This document shows, one piece after another, positions 7,861 through 64,000 of a stretch of DNA of 64,000 nucleotides. Source of the stretch: a virus. Where the stretch lies: the UHGV virus genome UHGV-0020019. One strand, given 5' to 3'. Made by a program: the position numbers and the translations under genes. Under the pieces are notes generated by a model. That model ran no database searches. It saw only the letters and a list, made by a program, of their open reading frames with translations, and had not been told where the DNA came from. The first letter of the stretch is position 1, and each line of letters begins with the position of its first letter.

Positions 7861-8445
7861 ATGGAAATCAAAGAAGAATGGAAAAGCTTACCAGAGTACA
7901 TTGGAATAGAAGTAAGTACTTTAGGCAGAGTAAGAAAGAATACAAGAAAACATCATAGAGATGTAATTAGTGAGTTCTGTAAAGATAGAGATGGTTATTG
8001 TAGATGCACAGTTCAGAAGTTAGATGGAAAGAAGACATCTCAGCCAGTTCATAGGTTAGTAGCAAAGGCTTTTATAGAAAATCCTGAAAACAAGCCTTGT
8101 GTCAATCATATAGACAATGACAGAACAAACAATAGAGTAGATAACTTAGAATGGGTAACACCAAAGGAAAATGTATATCATTCATTTACCCATGGAGAAA
8201 GAAAGAAACTGAAAGATGTTCAGAGAACTACAGTCCTTACAGATTTTCAAGTTTCTCAGATAGCAAAACTAAGAGAACTCTATACAGTAAATCAAATCTC
8301 TAAGTTGTTTAATATTAAGTATTCAACATTAAAGAATATCATTCGCAGAGTAAATAATAGAAGATTGGATAACCAGCAGCCAAGCATATATCAAGATATA
8401 TATGAAGGTTCAACGACTATCCCTTTGGGAGTAAGGCTTAAGTAA
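7861..8445 (+). mobile_element. HNH homing endonuclease (NUMOD4 N-terminal domain, HNH_3 core, C-terminal HTH-like module)
   Basis: NUMOD4 signature 'EEWKSLPEYIGIEVSTLGRVRK'. HNH core 'HRLVAKAFIENPENKPCVNHIDNDRTNNRVDNLEWVTPKEN'. C-terminal 'VSQIAKLRELYTVNQISKLFNIKYSTLKNIIRR' is HTH-like. A free-standing gene wedged into the structural operon is typical of a homing endonuclease gene. Confidence 0.8.
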
Positions 8446-31030: not shown

Positions 31031-31068
31031 ATAAGTGGAAGGCTACTTTAGCTTTCCACTTATTTTTT
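31031..31068. terminator. bidirectional rho-independent terminator between the convergent fibre operon (+) and the 2450-aa giant gene (-)
   Basis: 'ataagtggaa' (31031-31040) pairs with 'ttccacttat' (31054-31063), with an inner 'gct/agc' extension, giving a stem of about 13 bp. It is flanked by 'aaaaa' upstream and 'tttttt' downstream. It abuts the stop codon of the minus-strand gene. Confidence 0.55.
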
Positions 31069-37000: not shown

Positions 37001-38419
37001 ATTAGGATTATAAGCTACCTTATAAGGACTGCTTCCAATCTTCTCATATTGCTTCTGTTCATTTTCATCGAGAGTTCCAAACTGTTCAGCTCTAGTCCAG
37101 TACTGAGGATTAAGTGTCATCCAGTCAATACCAAATGCTCCCTTAATATCACTACCATCAGGATTCTTTCCCATATTATGAAGAGTGGTATAATCTACCT
37201 GCATCTTATGGACAGAATGGAATGCTCCTTCACTATCTTTATAATGAAGACCTCCTTGTTTATCTCTTATGATTTTAGTCTTGTTAGGATCAAGAACATT
37301 ACCTTTATCATCTACCATTACAATAGGCTTTTCTGCATAAGCATCCTGACCTGCTCTATATAATTCTGCAATACCATTCAATTTATCAGCAGAATAACTC
37401 ATAGCAGAAATACCTACATCTTTAGCAAATAAACCAAATTTTTTAAGGCTGCCTTGATGCTCTTTGATATACCTCTTAGCTTCATTATTTAAAGCTGAAG
37501 CTGCCATATCAGGTGACATGTTAGCTTCATATACTTTCTTTTTAGCAAGTATCTGACGCATATCATCAATGCTAAAGTTCTTCATCTCTGAAGTAATCTG
37601 GTTTTCAGAACCATTGCCATAATGAGAGGCAAACTCAGATATACCCATATTGGTCATACCATTCTTATCTTTATAGCTTCCAGGAGTAATAGCCTGTACA
37701 AAAGCTTCCTTTACCTGTTTATCACTAAGTCCTGTAATATATGGATCATTAAGATAAGTTTGAGATACCTGATAACCTAAGTTCTTTGCATGATTATCTA
37801 CATCATCATTATAGATTTTTTCAAGAATCCTTTGATTTTTATCAAAGGCTAATTTTCTTCCTGATTCCTCACTACCTGCAAAAGACTGAGGAGCACTAGC
37901 TGCTTGCATGGAGACTCCTAGAGGCATGAAAGCCCCCTGTCCACTATTCATGTGAACTGTTTCCCTAGCTTTTATGTCTTTGTTCCATTTATCTTCAAAT
38001 TCTTTAGGAGTAAGATAATTACTCTCCATAAGTTTAAGCTTAGCATCAGTAGAAAGCTGATTATACTTTTCAAAATCAGCTCCTAAGCCTTTATTGTTGT
38101 CTCTAGTACCATCAGCATTAATAGGACTATATAATTTAGTAAATTCAGTGTTGACTATATCATCCTTATATAAGGTGTTACGCACATCTATATCTGGTAT
38201 AGCTTTGAATTTCTCAATACCATACTTATCAATAAATTGCTTGTTTGAATAGAGATTATTGATATACACAGGATCATACCCATGCTGTGAAATCAAATCC
38301 CTATTCTTATTTATAAAACTATCATATTGAGCTTTTGAAAGACTTTTTAGTCCTTGTAAGCCTCGTAATCCTTGCAGTTTATCTATTGACATAACTTCTA
38401 TATTAATTTTTATTTGCAA
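31067..38419 (-). CDS. giant virion/cargo-type protein (2450 aa), function unknown
   Basis: Uninterrupted 7.35-kb ORF. Long coiled-coil, K/E-rich segments (e.g. 'REKEEKKKKEEEKKRAEDEAKKAAEKK'). Gly-rich hydrophobic tape-measure-like stretch 'FGIGTVGKFLSTASKVGKLARGFGKVLDTTGKLLTAETKVGQVAQGTAGALGIAYAY'. The track start is a TTG; the first ATG (MSIDKLQGL) lies 27 nt downstream near 38392 and is the more likely start. Confidence 0.7.
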   Translation of the reverse strand: MQIKINIEVMSIDKLQGLRGLQGLKSLSKAQYDSFINKNRDLISQHGYDPVYINNLYSNKQFIDKYGIEKFKAIPDIDVRNTLYKDDIVNTEFTKLYSPINADGTRDNNKGLGADFEKYNQLSTDAKLKLMESNYLTPKEFEDKWNKDIKARETVHMNSGQGAFMPLGVSMQAASAPQSFAGSEESGRKLAFDKNQRILEKIYNDDVDNHAKNLGYQVSQTYLNDPYITGLSDKQVKEAFVQAITPGSYKDKNGMTNMGISEFASHYGNGSENQITSEMKNFSIDDMRQILAKKKVYEANMSPDMAASALNNEAKRYIKEHQGSLKKFGLFAKDVGISAMSYSADKLNGIAELYRAGQDAYAEKPIVMVDDKGNVLDPNKTKIIRDKQGGLHYKDSEGAFHSVHKMQVDYTTLHNMGKNPDGSDIKGAFGIDWMTLNPQYWTRAEQFGTLDENEQKQYEKIGSSPYKVAYNPNEDSDLWYESFKMMSFGLADASAQVIPFGIGTVGKFLSTASKVGKLARGFGKVLDTTGKLLTAETKVGQVAQGTAGALGIAYAYNRGTFQETLQQNLANAEEAAMTASRNDIYNQYNTDKNYKASVDRLIKARAAGLKAEYIAQMHRDGGMQIADEKALDKMLHAKAQEAVLGELVQNRIKERMSSKEYANLQQKAIDGAGDAAFNTFWPEAIKYGFVNTMGYRKFLYTNPAGLSKKMSTTLKGLKEVTTAEGRKRLTTDISKFLTRADKWKEFGKTLGSQAWGGFWTNGTDDMQVDAAERINEDSFNRYLHSYQNGEALANTYGFADGMYSYIKGLQNSMGQETTWNAGTVGALGSIVNFTPNFANLARLATKEGRESYKNNFRREIERDENGNPLKNEDGSVKYKDLGKWNDWRGQMNYFIQNGVLNTYYGKKQTERDLRSHADYVNNLLDEYNDFVDIEHLIASNIASENVESLGDQKTIDFIKALHAVNTLDKLGEDSNDPTTMSSVVQNAKTLIEKASQLNLEEGKNPFSEEEISNLLSQYYASHPDIEQDEYTSQKALYEIAQNAQKLQKASEAFNKAEDEIQKIEKNNGISISPEVRTKMKVQQALNGHWEERREKMQSEIDDSSSMDTPKDARINIASVGGVKNAQSLVKVYDKQKAEIEKELEEQRKKTESLDKEYIKAIDESKQARREGNSDAILTAQNKQKDTKAKLDASKEQESYLEDLIYRTSIKSNELQFSMRNLETDAFKDTKDKVLTADEIFSLDPVTRARIMKAENRELYSKEQQREIEKLEKELLMKDADALQKVQDIALLTQRIDANQDAYSRMARNPEAAAVELEAQRAQAAEAAYKLINQRNAETIVDYINEFDKGMKGHTDITEEAKNQFVFKTLRKLNSTLLDTIDEDTLLPQYQQQVADAKEWGKTVDDIMAVISQSDRDDTWKENTLKNIDTIVENSNNKSEILDSLEKVIDDVNNPDATSSLEYVLNGLENLGYQRNASIVEARKERLQREKEEKKKKEEEKKRAEDEAKKAAEKKTNENIPTKEGLNESSLEDVPFDFSDEKEGKDEEKAIDKIKSPQVIEEEDLQQTDDSIKNANSLMDDDLNNGSIDMGDMWYYTTESPKKGKLLVAKEDNKISFKVDGKDTSIEITPEEYETAKEEQKNRKNIPFIADSLEKIDGDWYFNGNFAGDKDKAQVKAKKGFNIDKAIERQQAANEADLAAKGIDTGNKNLFDNGDSVQGKSETIEEQLEDITSTDKEVHSSDDNVDVAELNGIGQHNIETSVTTLSGNAMSEYNPTVLQNDGIIERKKGSETNDNMNQYYSWMNAAGVKLQNIIDHELAKIIRRNPNAKVRFMAVKPEHNATNDVAMQSHLMLVLDYDNNINKGITAIHDDTNGGVIESNGKKYLIIGTAGYGNRNASKLALYDMLWNPYISEGLNLKKQRKQFFDAHPSERFYVNENLSTEIVPASLIPGYIVRQTENDNNSEFRSVMELLSDTARNPMHYDLDSVAWGIQEMSKFLVVGTSLDKVMIPRDPMGNLGSAFVLMPASNGKMVPSYLKVLKYNEMRDGSLKDKINTLLQEVTSPNYKTRLNAVIGLSKIFYFDKEGDTILLRKNRDEISLVHDGKVQKTFVLNDNFDRAEFMKNIQDMNPRINITASVLRDIPTLMEYDEAGALMTDAALFGTVGSSYSIYGLDGEGKRIKPESPTNDIPKSSNNSDFKNGDKSQVIFKHQYYREVNGVFSLNGEIVTDEATLKQLRYNKMLLDNQLSPSMTQGVWDYFILSEGETPRAIKVNRNTKEVKESSEEQARELIKKINEKEAKKLREQKAKEVIEETSKVKNVDLGEDILTVDPETGEIIQAEDSSSSTITEESTDEKTLLTKEKTSNKDDYTHTSSEALDNSEHKAATQKFSDLIKNKKYMLRVMKLVRNKWKDAPKKIADLEKFLKDKNVEVDAIGTSENDIEAWIRTIEDCR

Positions 38420-49365: not shown

Positions 49366-52300
49366 TTATCTATTAGAAGGTGAAGCTTCAAATATCTTAA
49401 AGATAGCATCATCTTCATCCATCCTCTGCATCTGTTCCCAATCCTTAAAGAATGGCATATTGTATTTTACCATATTTCTCCAATACTTGTTTTCTCCTTT
49501 ATGGTCTCCTGATTTAATATCTGTAACAATATCACCATTGGTAAGACCATAGAAAGTATAGAGTAGGGAGTTCATAGTATTCAATGATGCCATAGGAGAA
49601 TTAAGTACTGTCAACCAGTTAGAGATATTCTTAGGGTGAGGCATTGAAGCTTCAGTATCAAGAATAGCTCTTTTTGTCTGATATATCCACCATCTTCTCC
49701 AAAATTCTCTCTTATGTTTATCTGGATCTCCAAGGGCAAAACCAAGACCTAATAGACAAATGTACATAAGCATTTCTGCTCTTACTCTCTTAATATTATA
49801 CTTCTGCATATCATCAAGATTATGCCATTGTGCCTGAGACCTAAACATAAAGGTATAGAAGTCTTTCATAAAAAGTCCAATAGCATCTAACTTCTGACCA
49901 CTATTCCAAGTATCTTTGGTATCATCATTGGTAAGACCTTTGTATAAACTATACCAATATCCTTCTCTATCTTCTCCAAGAGAAGCATCAAAGTGTCTCT
50001 TCCTAAACCTTCTGGAATAATGCTCAATCATCCATTGACGAAAATTCATAATACCACGTCCCCACCATTTTTGATGTAATAGTCCTTTATCCTCTTCATT
50101 CATGGCACCATGAGTAGACTGGTTAGCATAACGAAGTTTCTTTCTTACTTTATCAATAAAAGCATCTGTTATAGCATTTCCATCAAGGTCTGTTACTCCA
50201 GACTTTAGGTGAAGTTCAGAGTTACCATCCTGTTTATTAACTATTTCAAAGGCATCATATAAGCTTATCTTCTTTCCATTTAATAATACTTTCTGATTAT
50301 GAAGAACACCATACATGTTTACATAATGAATAAGATACTCACCAGAAGAATAGCCAATGAATGAACAATCATGAGAGATTAATTGTCGGAACATACTTTT
50401 ATAGTATTTAGTATGGCTCTTTTCAGAGAAGTTTTCCTGAAGAGGGTCAAACAGTTCTCTCATAAGTACACTCTTATGATTTACATTGTTAGTAAGTAAC
50501 TCTGCCAGTTCTCCTCCAACACCTGCACTACCAAATAGTTTAGTATGTGCCCAAGCATAATCCTTGAAGTTGTAAAATTCACCAGCACCAGCTTCAATCA
50601 TCATCTGAAATTCACCCATAAGGTAATTGGCAACAGCACCTTTGACATTAGTTGCCAAGCCTTTAAATGAAGTATAGGCAATGATATTACTGAACATCTT
50701 AGCCCAAGTCTTGTTTTCATTAGGGTCTCTGTTTTGTCCATAGATATGCTGAGCAATGAAACCTTCTATAAGTTCTGTAGTATTGGTATTTTTCCCTCTT
50801 TTCCACAAATCCTTGAATACTCTTATCTCTTTATTCTGTATCACATCACCTTTTGGGTCTTTATCTCTAGCACTCTGATTTTTCACAAAGTCACCAATAA
50901 ATTCAACAACCTGTGCTATCTGACTCATAGAATCATAATTAATAGCTGTTCCTGCAAGGGCTGCAATACCAGTTGAGAAGTTTTTAAGAAGTTCTCCTTC
51001 TTCAACTTTGTTGACAAAGAAAATAGGAATTTGTCTTAATGGAGTGTTATCAAAAGCACCTTCTGTAATCTGATATTCATCACCATCAATAATACCATTC
51101 ATATTATAGTTTTCATCATCTTCCCTTATTTTATAGAAGTTCTCAGCTTTATTTCTTACAGCTTTAGCTACATCCTTGAAGTTCTTAGCATCATGCATGG
51201 CATCAAGGAATTTACGTCTTATTTGTGGTGGAAGATATTGATGTTGTGCATAGGCTGGTAGAAGAGAGCCAATCTCACCTTTAAGTTGCATCATAGTATC
51301 ATAGTATTCAATTTGTTCCTGAGTCCAATCTTTCTGAAAGTTATCCCTCTTTCTATAACTATCATTAGGTACCCTTTCTGTTCTACCATTTTTACCATTA
51401 GTATTATCTACAACTCTATCTTCTGTATTCAGGTCTTCCCAGTCTTCAATAGCCTGTTTTAAATCAAAACCTCGAAAACCTTGACTATAGAGAGACTTAA
51501 TCTTTGCTGATCTTGCTGCTTTATATAATTTCCAATCTATATCACTAACTATATGACCATCATCCTCATACATAAATTCAGAATTATGTCCAGCTTTATG
51601 GAGTTTATCTGTAGCTCGACGAATCCTAAGAGATATACTATTCATAGCTGCATCCCTTGAATCCTGAGCATTCCTAATGACAGAACCCATAGCACCAATG
51701 ATAGGATTAGATGCTCTACCTATGCTATATAACCAGTCAAATTTAGTAGAGTCTGTAGTAGCCATTCTGATAGCATTGATCATAGACTGACCATCAGGAG
51801 TAGTGTTTCCAACAATTTCTATCATAAGGTTGGTCATAGTACTCTCTGTAAGATTATCGAGCATATTTTCCTTTTTATCAAAGAACTCTTTCAAGTCTTT
51901 AGCAGTCTGACGAATATTATCAATGTCTGTTTTGGCAATGGACTCATCAATGGTAAGATTCTCATCTGCCAAAGCTGATACCAATGGATAATATTGCTCT
52001 TTAAGGGATTTAATATCCTGTAGAATCTTAGCAGTACCAAAGGCTTTCTCTAATTCTGTACCCGTTTGAGGAATACCTTGAAGCATAGTATCAATATCAG
52101 CTATCTGAGAAGATGCTTCTCCTAAGAAATTTAATACTCCAGAGTAATATTTTTTACTAGATAACTCCTTCATAAGTTTATTAAGTACACCTTCAAGTCT
52201 TTTTCCTTCAGTATTATTACCTTTTTCCTTTTCAAGTTGCCTAATCTGCCTTTGAAGAGTAATAGCCGCATCTGCTGCTGCGTCAGAAAGAGTTCTAATT

Positions 52301-53262
52301 TTAGATGATGTCCTATGAATCTCATTGATGTCTATCTTATACTTCTTATTAAGCATTTGAATTTCAGCCTTAATCTTCTGTTCAGGACTATTAGTATAGA
52401 TATTGTTTTTCAATTGAGCAACCTGATTAATAAGAGCATCCATATCTATACCTTGATATTTCTTGGCATCAGTAATAGCCCTCATTAATAATCTCTGTTG
52501 TGGAACAGTAAGATTTATAGCTCCATGATTAAAGTCATTAAGGGTCTGTGCTGCATTTTCAATAGAACCAAAGGTGTTGATAACCCTTTGAACATGTGGA
52601 GAATTAGGACTTAAGGAGAATAGAATCATAGCATCCTTCTTATAAAGGTTACTAATATCTACTCCTGCAAGGTTCTTAAGATATTGTGCTAAATCAGTAT
52701 TCATAGCATTGAATACACTTTGCAGTTCTTGTGGCATAGTAGTTATATCTACACCTACATTATTAAATACCTGCTTATAAATATCCCAAGTCTGAAGATT
52801 TTTCTTAACACTATCTCCATAGGTATGTGTCCTGGAGTTCTTCTCTGAAACAATGATGTTATAGATATCACCATGTTGTACTACAATTGAAGTAAGTCCT
52901 TTATGATTATCGTTGAAATCATCAGCTTTCCTTAAAGCATCTTCTGCATTTGAGAAATCTACTCTCTTACCATTGATATCTACTGCTCCTAACTGAAGTT
53001 CTGCTGTAGAAAGATTACCAATATCTTCCTGTATAGACTTGAAGTCAAGGAACTTCAATACATCTTCTGCATTATGCTGTCCCTGACTATTCCTTTCTAT
53101 ATTAGCTTGGTCCATCTTATCTGCCATATCAGATACAGTATAGGAGGCATAGAGCCAATTAGTAAGAGGTCTATTCTTTAGTTTCTCAAGCATCTTTTTA
53201 TACATCCTTGAAGGCTCCCCATTGGGAGCCTCAGGATATAAAATACATGAACTATTACTCAT
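49366..53262 (-). CDS. giant virion/cargo-type protein (1298 aa), function unknown
   Basis: Uninterrupted 3.9-kb ORF. Its ATG lies 3 nt downstream of the stop of the 3572-aa gene, so the two are tightly coupled and co-transcribed. Helical, no recognised motif. Confidence 0.7.
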   Translation of the reverse strand: MSNSSCILYPEAPNGEPSRMYKKMLEKLKNRPLTNWLYASYTVSDMADKMDQANIERNSQGQHNAEDVLKFLDFKSIQEDIGNLSTAELQLGAVDINGKRVDFSNAEDALRKADDFNDNHKGLTSIVVQHGDIYNIIVSEKNSRTHTYGDSVKKNLQTWDIYKQVFNNVGVDITTMPQELQSVFNAMNTDLAQYLKNLAGVDISNLYKKDAMILFSLSPNSPHVQRVINTFGSIENAAQTLNDFNHGAINLTVPQQRLLMRAITDAKKYQGIDMDALINQVAQLKNNIYTNSPEQKIKAEIQMLNKKYKIDINEIHRTSSKIRTLSDAAADAAITLQRQIRQLEKEKGNNTEGKRLEGVLNKLMKELSSKKYYSGVLNFLGEASSQIADIDTMLQGIPQTGTELEKAFGTAKILQDIKSLKEQYYPLVSALADENLTIDESIAKTDIDNIRQTAKDLKEFFDKKENMLDNLTESTMTNLMIEIVGNTTPDGQSMINAIRMATTDSTKFDWLYSIGRASNPIIGAMGSVIRNAQDSRDAAMNSISLRIRRATDKLHKAGHNSEFMYEDDGHIVSDIDWKLYKAARSAKIKSLYSQGFRGFDLKQAIEDWEDLNTEDRVVDNTNGKNGRTERVPNDSYRKRDNFQKDWTQEQIEYYDTMMQLKGEIGSLLPAYAQHQYLPPQIRRKFLDAMHDAKNFKDVAKAVRNKAENFYKIREDDENYNMNGIIDGDEYQITEGAFDNTPLRQIPIFFVNKVEEGELLKNFSTGIAALAGTAINYDSMSQIAQVVEFIGDFVKNQSARDKDPKGDVIQNKEIRVFKDLWKRGKNTNTTELIEGFIAQHIYGQNRDPNENKTWAKMFSNIIAYTSFKGLATNVKGAVANYLMGEFQMMIEAGAGEFYNFKDYAWAHTKLFGSAGVGGELAELLTNNVNHKSVLMRELFDPLQENFSEKSHTKYYKSMFRQLISHDCSFIGYSSGEYLIHYVNMYGVLHNQKVLLNGKKISLYDAFEIVNKQDGNSELHLKSGVTDLDGNAITDAFIDKVRKKLRYANQSTHGAMNEEDKGLLHQKWWGRGIMNFRQWMIEHYSRRFRKRHFDASLGEDREGYWYSLYKGLTNDDTKDTWNSGQKLDAIGLFMKDFYTFMFRSQAQWHNLDDMQKYNIKRVRAEMLMYICLLGLGFALGDPDKHKREFWRRWWIYQTKRAILDTEASMPHPKNISNWLTVLNSPMASLNTMNSLLYTFYGLTNGDIVTDIKSGDHKGENKYWRNMVKYNMPFFKDWEQMQRMDEDDAIFKIFEASPSNR

Positions 53263-53265
53263 ACA

Positions 53266-56200
53266 CTAACAATATTTTTTAAACTCATTAATTGCTTCAT
53301 CAATACTTAAATCTAATCCTTTCTGTTTAAATACATTCTGTAAAAACTTACCAAAGACCTTTTCTCTACCTTTAATACTCTCAGCCTTCTGTAAAGCTTC
53401 CTCCTTACTTAATGTAGAAACCTGTTTCATAATCAAGTCTGCAAATGCTGCAAGATTCTTGATCTCTTCAGTCTTTGTAATAACCTGGCTATTAGAAGTG
53501 CCTTTTACATTAGACTCTTGAGGACTTTCTGTCTTCAAGTCAGAAGCAGAGTTATCTTCAGTAGTCTTGGTAGTATCACTCAATGGGTCTTTGATATCTA
53601 AAGTACTCATCTCTAAGTATTCACCATTGTTACCAAGAGGTTTAATTAACTCAAAAACAAGTTCTTCACCTTTATCAGAAGTAAGATGCCAAAGATAAGT
53701 ATTGTTATTCACCTTAGTCTTCATATAGGAAATACCTGCAAGATCAGCAATATCCTCAGGTCTATAGACAGTCAATCTATTATGCTTAACATCTACATTA
53801 TAGTGAGTATCCTTGCCTCCCTTTCTTGGAACTAGCTTGTTGTTTTCCCAGTTATTTCTAATAAACTGATCAATCACCAAGTCAGGAATTACCTCAGGGA
53901 AGTTCCTATATGTATCAACATAGGTGGCATTACCATTCTTACTCTTCAGCTTTTCCTTTACATAGGTAGGTACCAAAGACATGAAAGTCTTAGGAGAAAA
54001 TCCAATACCAGCTCTAAAGAAACTGTAGTTAAACAGCATCTGAGAAAGCTCTGGGTCTTCTTTATGCAAGTCAATCCAAGCACTGCGAAGTTCTTCCTTT
54101 TTCTGTTCATCCATACCAGTGATATTAATCATAAGATATGGTCTTCCAGTCTTCTTGGAAACATTCATTCTAATAGCTTGAATCAAGGCATTATCTGAAT
54201 ACTTTTCCTTGAACTTCTGTTCCATAAACCACTTAGGAAATTCTGTAGCATAACTTTTAAGATGCTTAGGATTAATCAGACCTGACTGTATCAACAGATA
54301 AGACTGATAGAAGTTAGAGAACTGATCCAAAAGTTTCTTGTCATTATACATCTTATCAGCAATATCAGCAGGAAGATTAGCCAATAGCTTTCTGAAACCA
54401 TTGCTACCAGTAGGCATATCAGAGAAAATAGCCTTTGCAATATCCACAGTTCTTGCAAACTGTTTCAATACTGGATGGTCAAAGAAGATGTCATCAATAT
54501 CAACAGGCATACTATCAACAGTGTAGAAATGAGTACCATTCTCTGTGTTAACATCAATGAACTGAGACATTTTATGCTCAATGATAAGATTATCTACAAT
54601 GAGTGGACCAACAGCACTTGATATAGAATTGAATCTTGTAGCATAAGTAGGCTTACGCATAGCATCAGTAAGACTTCTCATTTTCTGGAAAGCAAGAAGT
54701 ACTTTGTAATCAGTAGCTTCATGTTCCTCGGAAGTAAGACCTTCAACCAGTTCCTCTGTAGTAAGTTCCTCGGTATTAATCAAAGAATCATCATTGATGT
54801 TATTCTTTTCTCTATACTCAGTCAGCCATTTCTCAATGATGTTGGACAAAGATTCATAATTGGTAAGATTCTCTCTATTGAACTTGTTGAGGGTTCTTTC
54901 TATAATATCCTGGGAAAGGAAGAGAGCTGCATCCTCAAATGTCATACCCAATCTAAGCATAGTATTCAGCATACCAGCTGTAGTCATGTTAATATTCATC
55001 AAGTTCAAGATTGGATCTTTTACAGCATCTGCTGAAGCTGATACCAAAGAACCTAAAGTCTTACCAATAAGGTTACCATCTCTATCATACTTCATATCAA
55101 CCTGCATTCTTTCACCAAAGGTAGTACCTGCAATAGTGAAGGGATTTTCTCCACAGATTTCAGATACATCAAGAAAGATGTCATTACTCTCAAGAGTAGC
55201 ATGAGCTACCTTATTTACAGCAAACACACCAATCAATGATGCAGCAGCACTATTCTGCTTATAGAACTGTACCTGAGTATCAGCAAAGGTAAGGTCTTTA
55301 TCTGTATAAGAAAGGTCTTTGAGTTCATCAATAGACATTTTCTGAAGGTCAGACCACTTAATACCCTTGTTAGCAGGATTCTTATAGGCAGCAACCATAT
55401 AACCCATTTTCTTAGGAGCATCAAATCCTCCAGGATTAAGAATCTTATCAGCAGTCATCTGATTAGTGAGTACTGCATAAGTCATATCGATAATCTTGTT
55501 ATCTCTGTATGTTCTACCAGAAGTAGGAGCATCAGTATAATAAGCAACCTGTTGATATTTACCATAAAGCCACTGCATGAATTTATCAGCAGACTTCATC
55601 TTCTGAGGATTGTCGAGGAACATTCTTACCTGTTCACCAACCCAAGTATTGTTGGTCTTACCATCATGTGCCTTCTTATAGCTTTCAGTTGTTATGTTAA
55701 ATAGCTCCTTTTCAATCTCATTTTTCTTTCTTGTCTTGATAGGAATATCCTTACGCATGACATATCTCTTATCAACATCAAAGTCAGAGTCATCAATCTC
55801 AGTAAGCTCATAAGGAAGCATGATAGCATCACCAGCTTCTCTAGGCATGAAACCTACAACCTTCATTGGAGCACAAGAGTACTTATCCTCTGTAGGAATA
55901 CGGTAACTTACCATTTTAAGAAGCTCTGGATCCACAGCATTGATAGCATCTACATTAATAGTACCATCAGCATTGGAGAATTTATCAAAGAGTTCATTAG
56001 ACCAGATAGGAGCAAAGACTTCAAAGTAAGCAATACCACCTTGATTTCTCTTGAGATACTCCTTATAGGAAAGATTATCATGCTCAGAAGCATTATACTC
56101 TTCCTCAAGAGGCATAAGATTACCTTGCTTGTCATTAAATCTGATATGCAACTGAGTAGACATACCAAAGTTAGATACCTGAACAATAGGACCACCAGCA

Positions 56201-59200
56201 ATCTTCTGCTTATTTACTCTGTTCTTAATGATAGAGTTGATAAGCTGTTCAATTCTCTTAGCCTGTATTGGGTCACCTTTTGGTATTCTAAATTCACCAG
56301 TCTCCTTATCAATAGAACAAGCCTGCAAGAGGTCTATTCCATATCTAGGAGAAGACATGATTTCTCTCTGAAGAATCTTGGAAAGAGCAATATTCTGTTC
56401 CTTCTTATCTTCACTGTTGAAGTGCAACTCTGCTGCAAGATTATTAATACTTTCCTCAATGTTGGCAGCAATAGTCTTCTCATACTCTTTTCTAAATTCA
56501 TCAGCCTTTACCTTTCTGTGAGTACCATCAGGTTCTGTCCACTCATAGTAGTTATCTACTTGATTACCATTCTCGTCAGTAGTATAAAGGTCAAGGTCAG
56601 AAGGAGTAATCATTCTAATCTGAGAACCATGAGCCTGAGAATGCTCCTTAAAATGCTCAGGAACTTCTTGCTGCAAGCAGTAGTCTTCATAGGAAGCCTC
56701 ATGTACAAAGGTCTCAGTATTATAGTTCCTATAAACTCTTTCACCTGTAGCATCAGTCTCTTCCTTGAAGATTTGATTCTTCATATAGGTATAGGCAGCT
56801 TCCTCACCACCTTCCATATCTCTGAACTGGAAGATATTCATCTTACCTTGAAGACCAGACTTAATGGCAGATTCAAACTGAACAGTATCAATGCCCTTGG
56901 TAGGATTCAACTTCTCTGAATCTTCCATTACTCTATAGACAGCTCTAAGGAGATTTGGTCTGGAGAGCTTTTCACCTTTAAGGATAGCATCAGCCATAAT
57001 GAGAAGATACTCTGCATTCTTAGCCTGGAAAGGTACTTCCATAGAATGAATAGGAGCATTAGCTACACCCATATCCTTTGTAAGCTTTGAATACACAAAT
57101 GGCTTCAATGGCTGGAATGCTGTCTCCAAGTCAGTATAGTTGTACTCACCTTTCTGTAACTTCTGATAAATATCTTCTGCTTGCTTAGACCATCTACCAA
57201 AGATAAATGCTTTCTTTCTGTAAGATGAAGGAGATGAATATCCCTGAGCATCAGTAACATTAATCTTAGTATACTTACCATCCTTGCCTACAAGAGATTC
57301 CTTAAGAGCCATCATCTGAGCTTTCTGATTCTCTGGAGCAGCAGCAATTCTTCTATCAAAGACCTCTGCAATATTGGCAATGATGTTAGACTTGAAGCTG
57401 TCAAAGTCCTGTAAGATGAATGTTCTATACTTACCATCAGATACTCTGTTACCATTATAATCGGTAGCATAAATGTTACCTCTTACACCTGGAGCATGAA
57501 GCTGTGCTAAACGCTTCTGCAAGTCCTCAGTATCCTTATAGAAAGCAATATCTGTAAGAGTCAGCTGTAAGATATTCTTAGAAGCAAAAGCATCATTCCA
57601 AAGATAATTCTCTACCTGCTTTCTTACCCAGTCAGTAGCTTCCTCATCTTTCAACTCAGAAGGGTAGATACCCTTGATACTCTTAGCTGCTTCCAAAATA
57701 CCATTGTTCTCCCAGTTGTTGAGGATAGACTGAACTCTATCTTCCATGTGCTGACGGATAACTTTATCAGCAAGTTTACCAAGCTCTGCTTCTTCCTCAG
57801 CAGTAAGAGCTACTTCTCCATCTACTTTCTTCTGAAGGAGAGATGCTAATCTATTATTATCAGAAGAGATAGTATTATCTTCATTACGAAGAATATCTCT
57901 CTTGGCAATCTTGTCAGCAGTATTCTCCAGATAGTTATTCAATACAGGAAGGAAGTTAAACCTACGTCCATTGGTATCAAAGTTCTTGATGAAACCTGCA
58001 TCTTTTTTATCCATATTTCTCATTCTGACAGTCTGGATTCTGCTAAGTTCCTGCAAGAACATATTATGAAGACCATAGACAATGGAATCCTTATAGTTTG
58101 CACCTCTATAAGAATAGAACTTGATGAACTCAGATGATGGTTTGTTAGACTGCATAGGTATTCTGAACCAAGCTGGAACCATATTGGTATTATTATCAGT
58201 ACTCTCTGCAAAGTACTCAGTGATAAGGGATAAGGTATATTCTGCATCACTCATATTACGCATATAGTTATGCTTGTTGAAGTTCAACTCTACCTTATGA
58301 TCAAATACCTTACGAGCATTTTCATCCTTAGCAAGTATTCTAAGCCACTCATTTCTCCATCCTTTATCTACATCACCATTTTGGAACTTAAACCATTCTG
58401 AAGAACCATATTCATCCATAATGAAGTCTTCAAATGCCTGACCTTCCTGACGGAATTTATTCATCAGTTTAGTCATAAATGATGGTGTAATATAAGACTG
58501 ATACATCTTGCCACTGTCATAGAATGCATTGACAGCAGTATCTTCCAACTTGTCAGTAATAGGAGTAAGAAGATTCCTCAAACTACCACCAATAGAGTTC
58601 TCTGTTCCAAACTTAAATGGGTCATACTCCTTGAGAGTTCCCTTATTCTGAGACTGTAAAGCCTTATCCAAGTCCTTGACAATATAACCAAGAGATTCTG
58701 TAATCTTCTTAATGTTTTCTGCATTGACTACATCAGTAAGCATTTCCTCTGTGATGTTATAGCCAAAGCTCTTACTGATACCTAAAATGTTATCAGTAGC
58801 AGTCTTTGACATAGTATCATCCAAAGTCTTTCCTTCCTTAATAGCCTTGTCAATCTCTCTCAACTCAGTCAGAGCCTTATGAAGATTGAACTCAGAGTTC
58901 TTTCCTGTAGTCTGGTCAGAACCAAGAAGCTTAGAGTTAATCTTACCATTATTACCAAAGAGAGGATGTTCTCCAATCTTGAATAGGGCAGAGATGGACT
59001 TCATTGCTTCTGAGAGTGCAGGATGACTATTTACAGTCATGCTATAATACTTATCATCTTCAAGCAATACAATAGAATAGAGCTGGAAATGCTTAGAAAA
59101 TACTCCATAGAACTGGCTTTGGAAATCAGTCTCCTTACCACTCTTATCAGAAAGTCTTTCAATAAGCTGGGATAACCAAGGGTTCTGCTTCTGCTTATCA

Positions 59201-62200
59201 GACAATCTCTTAATCATATCATCAAGAGATAATGCTCCCTGTGTCCATCTCAAGATACTATTGACAGACTCTCTAGGATTTACCCTTTCTGCAATTCCCC
59301 ACTTACTATATACCTTGTTACCTTCTGCATCCAGGAGATAGCATTGATGAAGACCTAATCTTACCAAGGCAGACATAGAGTTAAGAACATCAATGGTTCT
59401 AGATTCAACCTGCCAATGTTCCTGCTCATCCTTTTCTCCTTCTTCTGCTGCTATATCCTGATCATTGGAATAGTCATTGAAGTTATCAAAATCTACCTTA
59501 GAGTCTTCTGTGGTAGTAAAGTTACCTCTGCTATAGTCCTTGGTAATACCAAAGCCTTCATTCATAGCAAAGATGTCTGCTGCCAGATACATAATAGCAT
59601 CCCAGTTGTCTGTAATCAGCTGAGCCTGCATCATGGTATCTGTATCCTCATAATCCATTACCTGAGGTGAGAACAGAGTTTTGGTTCTCTCAATAAGTCT
59701 ATCCAAACCTACAGTTTCTACAATCTGCTTTCTAGATGCAGACTGAAAGTCTAGGTCTGTATTGAGGGAAGGGAATAGAGTCTTTGCAAGACCTTCTTCC
59801 TTCTGAAGATTAGTAATCTCATCAGAGATAGAGTTAACTATCAGTTCTGCTGTATGACGAACTTCTGTAGCAGACAGAGAAGCACCAAGTTCCTCTAAGT
59901 CCTTGTCACCATTAAGCAGGTTGTCAATCTGCTTATTAAGCTTATCATACTCACTTAGATTAGTCTCAACTTCTTTCTTCTGAGAATCCTTAGATTCCTG
60001 AAGATACTCTTTCTCACTTGTTGCTTGAAGCACTGTGTCCATTTGATTGATAATGTTTTGATTTTCCTCAAATGAGTTCTCCATAGATAACTGTGCATCC
60101 AATTCCTTTAAATAAGGTATCTTCCAGGTAGCATCTACTGGTGTCTCATCATAGAGGTCATTAAAGTATTCATAACCTGGAAGAGAAACTTTCTGTGTTT
60201 GTTCTTCTGGGAAAGAAGGATTAGTTACTTCTGTTTCAGTTCCTTTATTATCATCAAAGACTATAACATCAGGATTCTTCACTATATATTCTGTGTTATC
60301 TGCCCACATAGTTCCCTTGTCAAGCACAATAACATCAGCTGTAGTGTTTCTTCCATTTTTTACATAGTCTCTAATATCTTTGTAGTGTTCTACTTTTGCA
60401 GTAGAAAGAATATGGAATTTGCTAACTTTAGCATAATCCCCAGTATAGTGTCTATTGATTCTATTGCCTTCTGGATGCTCTGCTGTAGGAGGTTCAGGAG
60501 ATTTATCTGTTCTACTCTTAGCATAATCAGTAGCCTCTTCTTCACTTGATGTAAAGTAGAGTGCTCCCTTAAGAGTTTCATCATAATCTACTGCTGTCTT
60601 TCCTACAGTTTCACCAAGAGTTTTAGCTTCTCTATCTTCCATTAAGGCATATCCTCGATAGATAGTAAGTGGTGATTTACCATCTTCTGAGTATAAACCA
60701 TCTACTTCCTTAGATAACTGACTTAACTGATACTGTTGAGCAGCATCATAAGAGTCTTTATCAAAATGCTTAGGCTCTGCTACTTCATGGTCAACCATAA
60801 ATACAACTTGAGGATTACCATGATTCTTTGCAATATTATCATGGTCATACTCCATATTGTAATCCATAGTTGCAGCAGTATGGAAACCTAAAGTCTTCTT
60901 ATAGATAGCCTGTAATGGCTGCTTTGCACTCATGTAGGCATCAAGATGGGTAGCACCTTCTTCCTTAACCATATCTTTAATAGCATAAAGGAAACCTTTA
61001 TTAGTACTAGGGCTAAGAGAGAATACACTTATCAAATTGCCATCAGGTTCTATAGCAAATCCACATAAACCATCTTCTGTAATAAAGCATTTTGCATTAG
61101 AATAATTATCATGTAAATCTACTAATTCTCCATTAGGAAGATAGATTCTTACCATCTCAAATATATCATGGAATAATTTTCCATCTACTCTTCCTACATT
61201 AAAAGTGCCTACACTATTATCTTTGTTTGTATGGGTTAAATGAGATTGGACGCCATGCCAGCTACCATTGCTGTTGGCTCCCAAGAGTCCTCCCAGAATC
61301 CCTCCGATTCTTTCTTTATCCTCGTCATTAAGTTCCCTTTCTCTGAGCTGAAAGCTGGATACTCCTTTTTCAGAAAATTTACGGCTTCCTTCTTGAACTC
61401 TTCTAAACTCATCTGTTGTTTTGTATTCTTCTGTTCCATTTTCTTTTGAATTTTTATTTTCAGAACGTGAATTACTTGAACTTATTGTATTATCTTTGAT
61501 ATTTTTATCAAGATGTAAAGGAGAGCCTTCTTTCTTGACATTGTTACTAATAATGGTAACAGTATCTGTAGCTCTTGATACACCAACATATTCAAGCTGC
61601 TGCTTGATATTAGCTACTTGATCAGGTTGAGTATTCTTTACTTCTACATCTACATCACTAAGGTCTCCTAAATCAACTTCTTCAGAACTCTTTAACTCTG
61701 CATTGGCTGCATCATTTCTAGTCTCTTCTCCAAGGTCAACCATCTCCATAGCATTAGCAGCATTGTTGTCACTCATAGAAGCCCTAGATACATCTACATC
61801 ATCCATCAGTACATGGGTAAAAGTAGAACCTTGTGACTTATGAATGGTAAGAGCATAGCCAAAGTCAATAGTCTTAGCCTGTAAAAGGTTATGGCTATTA
61901 TCTTCAATGTTATCATTGACAAAGAGGAAAGAATCAATAGCATTAATCTTAGCATAGACTGCTGCCTTAGCTTCTCTACCATAAGCTCTTCTAGCTTCAT
62001 TCCATAATCTCTTCTTCTCATTGGCAAGAATCATGGCACTCTGTCTATTCTGGGCATTGTTCTTAATGTCCATGAAGTTGAATGTATCTATATTACCTAA
62101 TGAGTCTTCAAGAGTAATAGGAACAGCCTGCATCACTACAGGAGTACCATTATCTAATCTGGTCTGTACTGTAGTAGGTCTGCCTACCTGAGTTACTTTG

Positions 62201-63984
62201 TATGATTCAGAATTAATGAATCTATAACTCTTAGTTCTCCATTCATATCCCCAGTTAGCATAACCTGTCATAGGCTCACCTACATGTGGAATAGGAGAGT
62301 CATAACCCAAAAGTTCTCTTACCTGATTATTGTAAGCAGTTACAGCCTTGTTGGTATAAGCTAGGATTCTAAAGTAATTAGGATTCTGCTTCAAGCCTTT
62401 AACATACTTATCAATAACTTCATTGATAGCATCTTGATGCTGAGGAGCAATATATGCAACACCCTCACCTTTACTATTGAATGATGATATCCTAGACAAA
62501 GGTTCTCCATTACGGATAGCTGTAGCTTCCTTAAGGATAGCATTGTCATCTGTTCTCTCTACTTGGGTAAGACGGATGACTTTACCTTCACCATTTCTAA
62601 AGACCTTAGAGATTTTATCCTCATTGACAGGAGCCAGCTGAGCTTCATCACCTACATAGATAATCTTAAGATCCATTTTCTTGGCAATATCATTAAGGAT
62701 TTTATAATTCTCCTCATTGATCATAGAAGCTTCATCGATAATAATGGTAGTTCCTGGCATGATGTCTACATCCTTCAAGACATTTACCAAGTTTCTAGCA
62801 TTATAAGATTTGCTTGAATCTACTTCTACATTGATACCAAACACCTTATTTAATGTAGATGCCTTGAAGCCAGCCTTAGATACTCTGTCATTAAGTACTG
62901 CTGCTGCCTTATTGGTTGTAGCACAGAACATCACAGGTCTATTCTGCTTCTGTCCTTTCTTAGCAATCATCTCCATAAGAGAAGTCTTACCAGTACCGGC
63001 ATAGCCACTAAGAGTCATAGATGTCTCATTGGACTTCATGAATCTATCCATCTCATTGAGAGCATCTATCTGCTGAGCATTTGGCTTGAATGGAGCTTTG
63101 ACAGTAGTACCATCTGCAAATGTAAAGTCTTGAGGCACAGCTTTTCCACTGTGTTTATTATCTTCTGGTACATTGTTTACCAAATCATAATCAGCACTTT
63201 CCTGCTCAATAAGAGACAGCTCATCCTTAAGTTCCTTGCCAGATATAGTACTAACAAACTCACCTGTCTTTGCATAATCTGCAATGTTGTTGTTTGTCTT
63301 AGAGAATGTTCCTATATTATCTGTTGCTGACTTAATCTGATTAGGATTATGAACAACATATATAGTTTGATTCTCTTTCTTATTATCATCAAAACCAGTA
63401 AGGACTATACCATTTTCAGAACCCTTTCTTTTAGATGACTTATTTACTATCTCTCTATAAGAAGTTCCTTGCTTGTGCAAGTCTTCCTTAGTACCATGAA
63501 ACACTTCTAAGTTTTTTATGTTCAAGAACAATGATAACTTGGCTTTTCTACTAGTTAAGAAATTATCCTCACTACCAGGCACAACATTATCTGTGGTAAA
63601 GAATATGGCGTTCTTAGTACCACCTGTCTTTGAGAAGAAATTATCGAACTCTGTGCTAAACTCAGACAGATTTTCATTATCAGTATAATGATAGACAACC
63701 AAAGGTTCTCCATTTTCATCTACTACTTTAGAAACATCTGAAGAATATGCTGGAGTGTAATTAGCCTCAATATCTGATGATTTAATATTACCACTTAATT
63801 TAGCTGTATCTTTAATAACAGATATTTGAGAATCATTAGAATCCCCATAATTTTTCAACAAAGAGTCTTCTGTAATTTCAATTAATCTAGGAGAATACTC
63901 TTTTGTAATGACAGCTTCCTTATATTCTTTATTACCTACATTGAATGTATTTCCATTGGTAGAAATAAATTCAGTTTGAGGCAT
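53266..63984 (-). CDS. giant multidomain (polyvalent-type) protein, 3572 aa: SF1B helicase domain, possible ADP-ribosyltransferase-like module, and RNA-polymerase-like DxDxD (DPBB) region
   Basis: Uninterrupted 10.7-kb ORF. Helicase motifs: Walker A 'GYAGTGKT', Walker B 'IIIDEASM', motif III 'IIYVGDEAQLAPV', motif V 'TIHKSQGSTF', motif VI 'YVGVSRATD'. Later 'SYRIPTEDKYSCAPMKVVGF..GDAIMLPYELTEIDDSDFDVD'. Size and architecture resemble the virion RNAP giants of crAss-like phages. Confidence 0.8.
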   Translation of the reverse strand: MPQTEFISTNGNTFNVGNKEYKEAVITKEYSPRLIEITEDSLLKNYGDSNDSQISVIKDTAKLSGNIKSSDIEANYTPAYSSDVSKVVDENGEPLVVYHYTDNENLSEFSTEFDNFFSKTGGTKNAIFFTTDNVVPGSEDNFLTSRKAKLSLFLNIKNLEVFHGTKEDLHKQGTSYREIVNKSSKRKGSENGIVLTGFDDNKKENQTIYVVHNPNQIKSATDNIGTFSKTNNNIADYAKTGEFVSTISGKELKDELSLIEQESADYDLVNNVPEDNKHSGKAVPQDFTFADGTTVKAPFKPNAQQIDALNEMDRFMKSNETSMTLSGYAGTGKTSLMEMIAKKGQKQNRPVMFCATTNKAAAVLNDRVSKAGFKASTLNKVFGINVEVDSSKSYNARNLVNVLKDVDIMPGTTIIIDEASMINEENYKILNDIAKKMDLKIIYVGDEAQLAPVNEDKISKVFRNGEGKVIRLTQVERTDDNAILKEATAIRNGEPLSRISSFNSKGEGVAYIAPQHQDAINEVIDKYVKGLKQNPNYFRILAYTNKAVTAYNNQVRELLGYDSPIPHVGEPMTGYANWGYEWRTKSYRFINSESYKVTQVGRPTTVQTRLDNGTPVVMQAVPITLEDSLGNIDTFNFMDIKNNAQNRQSAMILANEKKRLWNEARRAYGREAKAAVYAKINAIDSFLFVNDNIEDNSHNLLQAKTIDFGYALTIHKSQGSTFTHVLMDDVDVSRASMSDNNAANAMEMVDLGEETRNDAANAELKSSEEVDLGDLSDVDVEVKNTQPDQVANIKQQLEYVGVSRATDTVTIISNNVKKEGSPLHLDKNIKDNTISSSNSRSENKNSKENGTEEYKTTDEFRRVQEGSRKFSEKGVSSFQLRERELNDEDKERIGGILGGLLGANSNGSWHGVQSHLTHTNKDNSVGTFNVGRVDGKLFHDIFEMVRIYLPNGELVDLHDNYSNAKCFITEDGLCGFAIEPDGNLISVFSLSPSTNKGFLYAIKDMVKEEGATHLDAYMSAKQPLQAIYKKTLGFHTAATMDYNMEYDHDNIAKNHGNPQVVFMVDHEVAEPKHFDKDSYDAAQQYQLSQLSKEVDGLYSEDGKSPLTIYRGYALMEDREAKTLGETVGKTAVDYDETLKGALYFTSSEEEATDYAKSRTDKSPEPPTAEHPEGNRINRHYTGDYAKVSKFHILSTAKVEHYKDIRDYVKNGRNTTADVIVLDKGTMWADNTEYIVKNPDVIVFDDNKGTETEVTNPSFPEEQTQKVSLPGYEYFNDLYDETPVDATWKIPYLKELDAQLSMENSFEENQNIINQMDTVLQATSEKEYLQESKDSQKKEVETNLSEYDKLNKQIDNLLNGDKDLEELGASLSATEVRHTAELIVNSISDEITNLQKEEGLAKTLFPSLNTDLDFQSASRKQIVETVGLDRLIERTKTLFSPQVMDYEDTDTMMQAQLITDNWDAIMYLAADIFAMNEGFGITKDYSRGNFTTTEDSKVDFDNFNDYSNDQDIAAEEGEKDEQEHWQVESRTIDVLNSMSALVRLGLHQCYLLDAEGNKVYSKWGIAERVNPRESVNSILRWTQGALSLDDMIKRLSDKQKQNPWLSQLIERLSDKSGKETDFQSQFYGVFSKHFQLYSIVLLEDDKYYSMTVNSHPALSEAMKSISALFKIGEHPLFGNNGKINSKLLGSDQTTGKNSEFNLHKALTELREIDKAIKEGKTLDDTMSKTATDNILGISKSFGYNITEEMLTDVVNAENIKKITESLGYIVKDLDKALQSQNKGTLKEYDPFKFGTENSIGGSLRNLLTPITDKLEDTAVNAFYDSGKMYQSYITPSFMTKLMNKFRQEGQAFEDFIMDEYGSSEWFKFQNGDVDKGWRNEWLRILAKDENARKVFDHKVELNFNKHNYMRNMSDAEYTLSLITEYFAESTDNNTNMVPAWFRIPMQSNKPSSEFIKFYSYRGANYKDSIVYGLHNMFLQELSRIQTVRMRNMDKKDAGFIKNFDTNGRRFNFLPVLNNYLENTADKIAKRDILRNEDNTISSDNNRLASLLQKKVDGEVALTAEEEAELGKLADKVIRQHMEDRVQSILNNWENNGILEAAKSIKGIYPSELKDEEATDWVRKQVENYLWNDAFASKNILQLTLTDIAFYKDTEDLQKRLAQLHAPGVRGNIYATDYNGNRVSDGKYRTFILQDFDSFKSNIIANIAEVFDRRIAAAPENQKAQMMALKESLVGKDGKYTKINVTDAQGYSSPSSYRKKAFIFGRWSKQAEDIYQKLQKGEYNYTDLETAFQPLKPFVYSKLTKDMGVANAPIHSMEVPFQAKNAEYLLIMADAILKGEKLSRPNLLRAVYRVMEDSEKLNPTKGIDTVQFESAIKSGLQGKMNIFQFRDMEGGEEAAYTYMKNQIFKEETDATGERVYRNYNTETFVHEASYEDYCLQQEVPEHFKEHSQAHGSQIRMITPSDLDLYTTDENGNQVDNYYEWTEPDGTHRKVKADEFRKEYEKTIAANIEESINNLAAELHFNSEDKKEQNIALSKILQREIMSSPRYGIDLLQACSIDKETGEFRIPKGDPIQAKRIEQLINSIIKNRVNKQKIAGGPIVQVSNFGMSTQLHIRFNDKQGNLMPLEEEYNASEHDNLSYKEYLKRNQGGIAYFEVFAPIWSNELFDKFSNADGTINVDAINAVDPELLKMVSYRIPTEDKYSCAPMKVVGFMPREAGDAIMLPYELTEIDDSDFDVDKRYVMRKDIPIKTRKKNEIEKELFNITTESYKKAHDGKTNNTWVGEQVRMFLDNPQKMKSADKFMQWLYGKYQQVAYYTDAPTSGRTYRDNKIIDMTYAVLTNQMTADKILNPGGFDAPKKMGYMVAAYKNPANKGIKWSDLQKMSIDELKDLSYTDKDLTFADTQVQFYKQNSAAASLIGVFAVNKVAHATLESNDIFLDVSEICGENPFTIAGTTFGERMQVDMKYDRDGNLIGKTLGSLVSASADAVKDPILNLMNINMTTAGMLNTMLRLGMTFEDAALFLSQDIIERTLNKFNRENLTNYESLSNIIEKWLTEYREKNNINDDSLINTEELTTEELVEGLTSEEHEATDYKVLLAFQKMRSLTDAMRKPTYATRFNSISSAVGPLIVDNLIIEHKMSQFIDVNTENGTHFYTVDSMPVDIDDIFFDHPVLKQFARTVDIAKAIFSDMPTGSNGFRKLLANLPADIADKMYNDKKLLDQFSNFYQSYLLIQSGLINPKHLKSYATEFPKWFMEQKFKEKYSDNALIQAIRMNVSKKTGRPYLMINITGMDEQKKEELRSAWIDLHKEDPELSQMLFNYSFFRAGIGFSPKTFMSLVPTYVKEKLKSKNGNATYVDTYRNFPEVIPDLVIDQFIRNNWENNKLVPRKGGKDTHYNVDVKHNRLTVYRPEDIADLAGISYMKTKVNNNTYLWHLTSDKGEELVFELIKPLGNNGEYLEMSTLDIKDPLSDTTKTTEDNSASDLKTESPQESNVKGTSNSQVITKTEEIKNLAAFADLIMKQVSTLSKEEALQKAESIKGREKVFGKFLQNVFKQKGLDLSIDEAINEFKKYC
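55765..55917 (-). other. candidate RNAP catalytic double-psi-beta-barrel segment with DFDVD motif (aa 2690-2740 of the 3572-aa protein)
   Basis: 'YRIPTEDKYSCAPMKVVGFMPREAGDAIMLPYELTEIDDSDFDVDKRY' parallels beta-prime 'RQPSLH...AYNADFDGD' and QDE-1 'RSPAH...SGGDYDGD'. I checked the DFDVD codons on the DNA at 55771-55785. Confidence 0.45.
60235..60687 (-). other. possible R-S-E ADP-ribosyltransferase-like module (aa ~1100-1250 of the 3572-aa protein)
   Basis: 'LTIYRGYAL' (Arg motif as in the 'VYRR' of C3-like toxins) at aa 1108-1111. 'ALYFTSSEEE' (S-T-S-like) at aa 1143-1147, about 35 aa later. Candidate acidic motifs 'AEHPE' and 'NTEYIV' follow. The Glu motif is not canonical. Confidence 0.25.
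61540..63072 (-). other. SF1B (RecD/Pif1/Dda-like) helicase domain within the 3572-aa protein (aa ~305-815)
   Basis: All core motifs are present in the canonical order. A ~75-aa acidic insertion ('DVDVSRASMSDNNAANAMEMVDLGEETRNDAANAELKSSEEVDLGDLSDVDVEV') sits between motifs V and VI. I checked the DNA for Walker A at 62983-63006. Confidence 0.8.
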
Positions 63985-64000
63985 ATCATATATATAAGGT

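Follow-up and report, generated by a model that had tools for sequence, protein, structure and literature searches.

A giant open reading frame and its DFDVD motif

The DNA analysed here is a stretch of 64,000 nucleotides of the UHGV virus genome UHGV-0020019 (referred to as the window). Its largest open reading frame (ORF), at 53266..63984 on the minus strand and listed with 3572 amino acids (aa), contains a DFDVD motif that was proposed in a first-pass annotation as the candidate catalytic centre of a virion RNA polymerase (RNAP). All features of this ORF described below lie on the minus strand. Translation of the 153 bases at window positions 55765-55917, which lie inside the ORF, gives KMVSYRIPTEDKYSCAPMKVVGFMPREAGDAIMLPYELTEIDDSDFDVDKR, identical to the sequence quoted in that annotation. 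The DFDVD motif occupies aa 2734-2738 (55771..55785), forms a predicted Mg2+-binding catalytic triad and is the only DFDxD across all six frames of the window. It is preceded by YRIPTE at aa 2694-2699 (55888..55905), which in the catalytic double-psi beta-barrel (DPBB) constitutes the conserved R-x-P element. The first residue of YRIPTED is aa 2694, and R2695 precedes D2734 by 39 residues.

The frame is free of stop codons up to base 64000, and the last 15 bases encode PYIYD directly before the methionine of the listed ATG. PYIYD is matched in a metagenomic relative of 94% identity (L003, Logan SRR25571829), which continues for 579 aa beyond the N-terminal end of the window ORF. Judged from the sequence, the listed ATG at 63984 is internal and not the true start, and the full-length protein would probably comprise ~4,150 aa. 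Since the frame is open at the window edge and is extended in L003, all residue numbers are window-relative and the true N-terminus lies outside the window. The translation and positions of the motif and its flanks are thus as first annotated, with the restriction that the residue numbers hold only for the ORF as truncated where the window ends.

The C-terminal 2272 aa, used as a phmmer query against all PDB chains, gave one real match, the structure of gp66 from the crAss-like Cellulophaga phage phi14:2 (6VR4, E = 2.3e-10), and a 281-aa query around the motif also returned only 6VR4 (E = 8e-13). In the phmmer alignment YRIPTEDKYSCAPMKVVGFMPREAGDAIMLPYELTEIDDSDFDVDKRYVM is placed over YRIPNQGQSSNDPLQIVGILPEAMGDTIVAYTEIPTKTGSDFDIDKMYVM, with YRIPTED over YRIPNQG (YRIPTE aligning with gp66 YRIPNQ) and DFDVD over DFDID, column-for-column with gp66 1361-DFDID-1365. 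A tblastn search with aa 2001-3073 against 50,697 phage records matched 122 records, all of them crAss-like by name, and many of these matches fall under a 'putative RNA polymerase' annotation. The best match was the uncultured phage cr116_1 (Steigviridae, Pamirivirus) with 52% identity, and full-length BLASTP against cr116_1 gp051 gave 53% identity from aa 1331 onward. BLASTP against Bacteroides phage crAss001 gp50, itself annotated as 'putative RNA polymerase', gave 26% identity over ~1,930 aa (aa 1455-3386, E = 5e-159). Alignment with the crAss-like RNAP giants phi14:2 gp66 and the crAss001 protein had been proposed by the first-pass annotation as a check, and both alignments agree with its reading. 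The region from aa ~1331 to aa 3572, together with the stop codon (53266..59994), is homologous to the crAss-like virion RNAPs along its length and is referred to below as the polymerase body.

To assess conservation of the catalytic loop, 45 metagenomic homologues of aa 2201-3100 were aligned. In those with the region present, the motif reads DFDVD in 17, DFDID in 6 and DYDVD in 1 (the window's own row excluded), and position 4 is Val or Ile in the aligned relatives. Across 17 aligned sequences, gp66 among them, the R and P of the upstream element, the three Asp and the Lys that follows them are all invariant. According to the gp66 study, Ile or Val occupies position 4 in all crAss-like RNAPs, each single Asp-to-Ala change in gp66 abolishes RNA synthesis, and gp66 drives rifampicin-resistant early transcription (bioRxiv 10.1101/2020.03.07.982082). 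The replacement of the usual Gly by Val, which the first-pass annotation had compared to crAss-like RNAPs, matches this rule. The distance from R-x-P-T to the first Asp is 39 residues in both the window protein and gp66, and 35 residues in E. coli beta' (R425 to D460).

The window copy is a single uninterrupted frame of more than 3572 codons, in which every invariant residue of the catalytic loop is present and the motif carries no insert. By contrast, in many relatives the gene is interrupted at precisely this motif. In cr116_1 (NC_055882.1, 14228-15070), the RNAP gene is split within the motif, between SDFD and VDKEY, by an ORF-bearing insert, and the ORF is flanked by sub-threshold Rfam group I intron matches (E = 3.5e-6 and 6.7e-7). 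At least 11 metagenomic homologue ORFs likewise end within the motif. In L003, an in-frame TGA at 17978-17980 stands where the window has AGA (codon R2083), and the gene call is split in two; this TGA may reflect an error of sequencing, stop-codon read-through or a nonsense variant. In the window itself, tRNA genes were absent and no Rfam family reached the gathering threshold; neither a suppressor tRNA nor an intron was found in it.

Disruption by stops or insertions in so many relatives, often exactly within the motif, together with the TGA in a relative as close as L003, would be expected if the window protein were a true family member that has decayed into a non-catalytic form, retained for a structural or ejection role while the host polymerase carries out transcription. 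The crystal structure of gp66, where the conformation of the motif is incompatible with Mg2+ binding, could be read in the same way. However, the window frame is intact and retains all the invariant residues, and the break in cr116_1, being flanked by group I intron signals, is probably spliced out and does not reflect decay. In addition, gp66 is active in spite of its crystal conformation (bioRxiv 10.1101/2020.03.07.982082). We therefore consider a decayed enzyme to be very improbable.

Fold of the polymerase body

A model of aa 2201-3100 was built with AlphaFold2 using the homologue alignment as input (mean predicted local distance difference test score, pLDDT, 84.2; predicted template modelling score 0.73). 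The motif, at model residues 534-538, forms a loop with a block pLDDT of ~61, and the strands on either side of it have values of 74-93. Given these confident flanking strands, the motif does not lie in a disordered linker, the placement that the first-pass annotation had named as speaking against a catalytic centre. A Foldseek search of the PDB with the model returned 6VR4 at E = 4e-23 over 963 columns, followed by a weak tail of mostly beta'/Rpb1-type subunits, confirming the similarity to DPBB RNAPs. The beta-rich domain around the motif (aa ~2648-2751, 55732..56043) is a beta'-type DPBB (DPBB2), and at the level of the fold two DPBBs with a connector are present in the single chain.

Structural comparison gave by far the highest score with 6VR4 (23.6, with 563 residues aligned), followed by QDE-1 (9.6), maize RDR2 (8.5), the non-virion RNAPs of AR9 (8.3) and PhiKZ (8.2), human Pol I RPA1 (8.0), M. 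tuberculosis beta' (7.6), vaccinia rpo147 (7.5), Pol II RPB1 (7.4) and the P23-45 tape-measure RNAP gp96 (6.8), while isolated DPBBs scored 5.0-5.6. The nearest non-phage match is QDE-1, in agreement with the published description of gp66. With this enzyme as the nearest non-phage relative in structure, one may ask whether the window protein is mainly an RNA-dependent RNAP, or a QDE-1-like primer-independent transcriptase of single-stranded DNA, as opposed to a promoter-specific transcriptase of double-stranded DNA. There is no hint of an RNA template in the window, and this alternative appears unlikely.

The first-pass annotation had also pointed to aa 2150-2300 as the approximate place of a second DPBB with a conserved Lys/Arg. 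Its candidate for the beta-type barrel region, the block VGKDGKYTKINVTDAQGYS...AFQPLKPFVY (aa 2232-2300, 57085..57291, the first residue of VGKDGKYTKINVTDAQGYS being aa 2232), is strongly conserved in the homologue alignment. This block was aligned by phmmer to gp66 ~965-1030 (TDAQ, G.W, QPLK), upstream of the gp66 connector at 1095-1238, with VGKDGKY...TDAQGYS on gp66 ~965-985. The segment alone is not significant, and no catalytic Lys/Arg could be assigned. Searches of the PDB by phmmer with the DPBB1 region and with the bridge-helix/trigger-loop region gave no matches.

In the model, aa 2901-2931 (model residues 701-731, 55192..55284) form a 31-residue helix that begins 163 residues past the motif, and gp66's bridge helix (1529-1559) begins 164 residues past its own motif. 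By this position only, the helix is a candidate bridge helix.

Very probably, DFDVD forms the loop that binds the catalytic metal in a DNA-dependent RNAP with two barrels in one chain, a member of the crAss-like (Crassvirales) virion RNAP family. This reading agrees with the first-pass proposal, and the analysis supports it by sequence homology, the alignment of the motif, the fold, residue conservation, gene order and the domains present. Several points weigh against this assignment. Neither Pfam nor PHROGs called a polymerase anywhere in the whole protein, their matches being confined to ART-PolyVal and to families of helicases. When PDB sequences were searched with a profile built on the motif region, the sole match was 6VR4, whose own segment was in the profile, and neither beta' nor QDE-1 was reached. 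The best local alignment to the NADFDGD region of E. coli RpoC (GDAIMLPYELTEIDDSDFDVDKRYV on the query side) was not significant, as 111 of 2000 shuffles (5.5%) reached its score. With beta' and QDE-1 out of reach of the profile and the RpoC alignment non-significant, sequence alone gives no link between the motif and the cellular enzymes. The identity to gp66 is low (~19-21% in structural alignments), and the motif loop itself is modelled at moderate confidence only. The beta-type barrel is supported at the level of the fold and not of individual residues, because the gp66 segment is non-significant and the sub-region searches were empty. Finally, the entry of the protein into virions, its ejection, its dependence on DNA and what the head domains do are deduced indirectly, with activity, packaging and template preference all taken from analogy.

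The family searches would also suit a different explanation, in which a DFDxD has arisen by chance in a big structural or 'polyvalent' protein that is not a polymerase, its true functions being those of the helicase and ADP-ribosyltransferase (ART) domains that Pfam and PHROGs recognise. The pentapeptide taken alone is weak evidence, with ~0.066 occurrences of DFDxD expected by chance at the length and composition of the giant ORF, and a related RefSeq giant, cr50_1 gp059, is annotated simply as 'DNA helicase'. However, the motif owes its weight to homology and conservation and not to the rarity of the pentapeptide. The phmmer alignment to 6VR4 and the Foldseek match to the same structure effectively refute a chance motif, which we consider hardly credible.

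Membership in other polymerase families was also considered. The protein was not assigned to the beta'/Rpb1 subunits, as there is no significant beta' similarity and the Gly of NADFDGD is absent, and its sequence did not place it among the QDE-1/RDR silencing polymerases. The right-hand polymerase fold of T7/N4-type single-subunit RNAPs, such as the N4 virion RNAP, was not found.

The N-terminal head and the neighbouring genes

The crAss-like RNAP makes up the C-terminal two thirds of a larger polypeptide, its body starting near aa 1331 and being preceded within the window by a head of ~1,300 aa. The first domain of the head is an ART-PolyVal (ADP-ribosyltransferase of polyvalent proteins) at aa 89-227 (63304..63720), recognised by Pfam PF18760 (E = 7.8e-13, 49.8 bits compared to a cut-off of 31.2). 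It is followed by a superfamily 1 (SF1; Dda/RecD-like) helicase at aa ~299-738 (61771..63090), matched by Pfam AAA_30 (E = 6.4e-31) and UvrD_C_2 and by PHROG 325, 'Dda-like helicase' (E = 1.2e-75). The helicase motifs are intact, with Walker A GTGKT at aa 332-336 and Walker B DEAS at aa 417-420. With the ART-PolyVal, the SF1 helicase and the GNAT fold described next, the protein carries at least two unrelated domains, including one of PolyVal type, as is characteristic of polyvalent proteins.

The GNAT-fold domain, a putative acyltransferase module, lies at aa 881-1095 (60700..61344) and was modelled by AlphaFold2 with pLDDT mostly 93-98. It had no Pfam match, and its top Foldseek matches in the PDB were nearly all GNAT acetyltransferases, with probabilities of up to 0.99 and a best E-value of just 1.2e-3. 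Small proteins of 250-700 aa, ~90 in number and for the most part without annotation, carry the same module at 45-80% identity. Some of them are located on contigs of 100-370 kb and in metagenome-assembled genomes labelled Elusimicrobiales or Rickettsiales, and the neighbouring domain is often ART-PolyVal, DUF1848 or NADAR. The module thus resembles a mobile effector unit for which Pfam has no family. The last part of the head, aa 1096-1300 (60085..60699), is a poorly modelled domain (pLDDT <50) that had no PDB or Pfam match. It is possibly a divergent ART-like module; comparison with the ART-PolyVal profile by hhalign, which would make it a second ART, covered just 21 columns at a probability of 81%.

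The head is modular: around the same helicase, the modules Kinase-PolyVal, cpYpsA, NADAR, DUF1848 and RNase H are exchanged among relatives from metagenomes. The helicase is present in 52 of the 120 best head homologues, and 20 of these 52 continue into polymerase sequence in the same ORF. No record in the reference collection covers at least 80% of the head. As to a processing peptidase of the kind that frees the domains of polyvalent proteins, an HExxH motif was not found in the three giant ORFs of the window. L003 has HEVLH in the 579 aa beyond the window, along with a leader (MGCVNRSSKEFK...) common to cr116_1, and the cr116_1 head gave a weak SprT-like match (E = 0.041) at its HExxH region.

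Beginning 3 bases past the RNAP stop codon is an ORF of 1298 aa (49366..53262, minus strand), the counterpart of the RNAP-associated virion cargo protein gp49 of crAss001 (BLASTP 23.5% identity, E = 1.9e-53) and of cr116_1 gp048 (46%). The third giant protein of the transcription block, of 2450 aa (31067..38419, minus strand, with TTG as the listed start), is the counterpart of cr116_1 gp047 (BLASTP 33%, E = 3e-155). Direct BLASTP between the 2450-aa ORF and the available fragment of crAss001 gp47 gave no match; the link to gp47 comes from gene position, since cr116_1 gp047 occupies the place of crAss001 gp47. PHROGs found nothing for either of these two neighbouring giants. Mass spectrometry of crAss001 virions has revealed gp47, gp49 and gp50, and in the published model these proteins are cargo of the capsid whose ejection accompanies or precedes that of the DNA (PMC10172136).

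The window has a GC content of 35% and also codes for the large terminase, the major capsid protein and the portal, all three crAss-type, as well as for further virion proteins, and the portal DNA is 74-76% identical to those of IAS virus, DAC15 and Kolpuevirus. By its gene sequences the window is part of a Steigviridae-like crAss phage. Two further giant ORFs, at 15835-20658 (plus strand, 1607 aa) and 20773-24168 (plus strand, 1131 aa), have little or no family annotation. An HNH endonuclease ORF (7861-8445, plus strand) lies directly downstream of the major capsid protein gene (6360-7736, plus strand), and the match of the capsid ORF to a profile of 495 positions is limited to positions 1-441; in cr116_1 the capsid gene is interrupted by an HNH gene.

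Proposed role and comparison with known systems

We propose the following mechanism, modelled on phi14:2 gp66 and crAss001 gp50. The polymerase would be synthesised late and enter the capsid as cargo, accompanied by the proteins that both neighbouring giant genes encode. Ejection would then take it through the tail in a partly unfolded state, either along with the DNA or before it, and it would refold inside the Bacteroidota host. The aspartates of DFDVD, carried on the beta'-type DPBB with the conserved R-I-P-T strand 39 residues upstream in the same barrel, would coordinate the catalytic Mg2+, and with Mg2+ held by the three Asp the enzyme would transcribe the phage early genes without the host polymerase. 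The ART, helicase, GNAT-fold and remaining head domain would be delivered along with it.

One possibility, which we put forward tentatively, is that the virion RNAP of this lineage has a second role in carrying a modular 'polyvalent' effector head that is injected along with the DNA, and that the built-in SF1 helicase may supply a single-stranded template. The suggestion of the helicase as template supplier arises because gp66-type polymerases prefer a single-stranded template in vitro, and because of the parallel with QDE-1, which needs the helicase QDE-3 together with RPA. A functional link is favoured over accidental fusion, as the helicase is N-terminal here and C-terminal in cr50_1 of the Suoliviridae, and as ART and Kinase modules are swapped before a conserved helicase in relatives.

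The window phage is best described as carrying a known enzyme type in a phage that is new with respect to the reference collection, its polymerase being ~52% identical to that of the nearest annotated phage. Contigs of 94% identity are present in public metagenomes. The motif, its role and its family are already known, having reportedly been predicted in 2018 and proven in 2020-21, and the less ordinary part of the window protein is the polyvalent head with its recurrent helicase fusion. In the literature searched, no description of such heads and fusions on crAss RNAPs was found, and the figures of Yutin et al. 2021 or the 2018 paper may show them. The identification locates the phage's own transcription enzyme, which annotation pipelines would miss, as Pfam and PHROGs return only 'helicase' and 'ART'. 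As an intact, intron-free fusion of polymerase, helicase and effector domains in the standard code, the protein might be a suitable construct with which to address two questions about the virion polymerases of crAss phages: how an enzyme that prefers single-stranded DNA obtains its template on an injected double-stranded genome, and whether the giant polypeptides are processed after ejection.

Among the known systems, phi14:2 gp66 (6VR4) is a virion-packaged DNA-dependent RNAP of 2,180 aa. It has a cleft-blocking domain (196-233) and, unlike the window protein, no ART, helicase or GNAT head. crAss001 gp50 belongs to the same family, the Steigviridae, and is homologous to the window RNAP, which likewise has a gp49-like gene directly downstream. 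At 2,412 aa, gp50 is without the N-terminal head of ~1,300 aa (probably ~1,900 aa) of the window protein, and the third giant gene differs between the two phages in relative order and strand.

The closest annotated relative is the protein of cr116_1 (Pamirivirus faecium) encoded by gp051 and gp049, which is 52-53% identical across the polymerase. Like the window protein, it has a long N-terminal head with ART-PolyVal, and it shares the conserved leader with L003. In contrast to the window protein, its gene is split and its head contains neither helicase nor GNAT domain, with the HExxH (weakly SprT-like) region instead. A more distant relative, gp059 of the uncultured Suoliviridae phage cr50_1 (NC_055868.1, 4826-19150, minus strand, KNV26_gp059, 4774 aa), resembles the window protein in combining a DFDID core (aa 3154) and an SF1 helicase (35% identical) in one polypeptide. 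Its helicase (aa 4235-4680) is however C-terminal to the polymerase, and the cores are very divergent, matching in short BLAST segments only. As its sole label is 'DNA helicase' despite the DFDID core, the polymerase of cr50_1 gp059 is unannotated.

The eukaryotic RNA-silencing polymerases Neurospora QDE-1 and plant RDR2 and the cellular beta'/Rpb1 subunits have Gly at motif position 4, where the window protein has Val, and show no significant sequence similarity to it. In cellular RNAPs the two barrels are on separate subunits, whereas the window protein is a single chain. The polyvalent proteins, as portrayed by Iyer et al. 2017 (PMC5512222), resemble the window protein in carrying several unrelated enzyme domains, including the family-defining ART-PolyVal, on one giant phage polypeptide, and are predicted there to be delivered with the DNA. 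Passages of that study that touch on RNAP name it solely as a target in the host and as the virion enzyme of N4, whereas in the window protein the polyvalent array is attached to a two-barrel RNAP.

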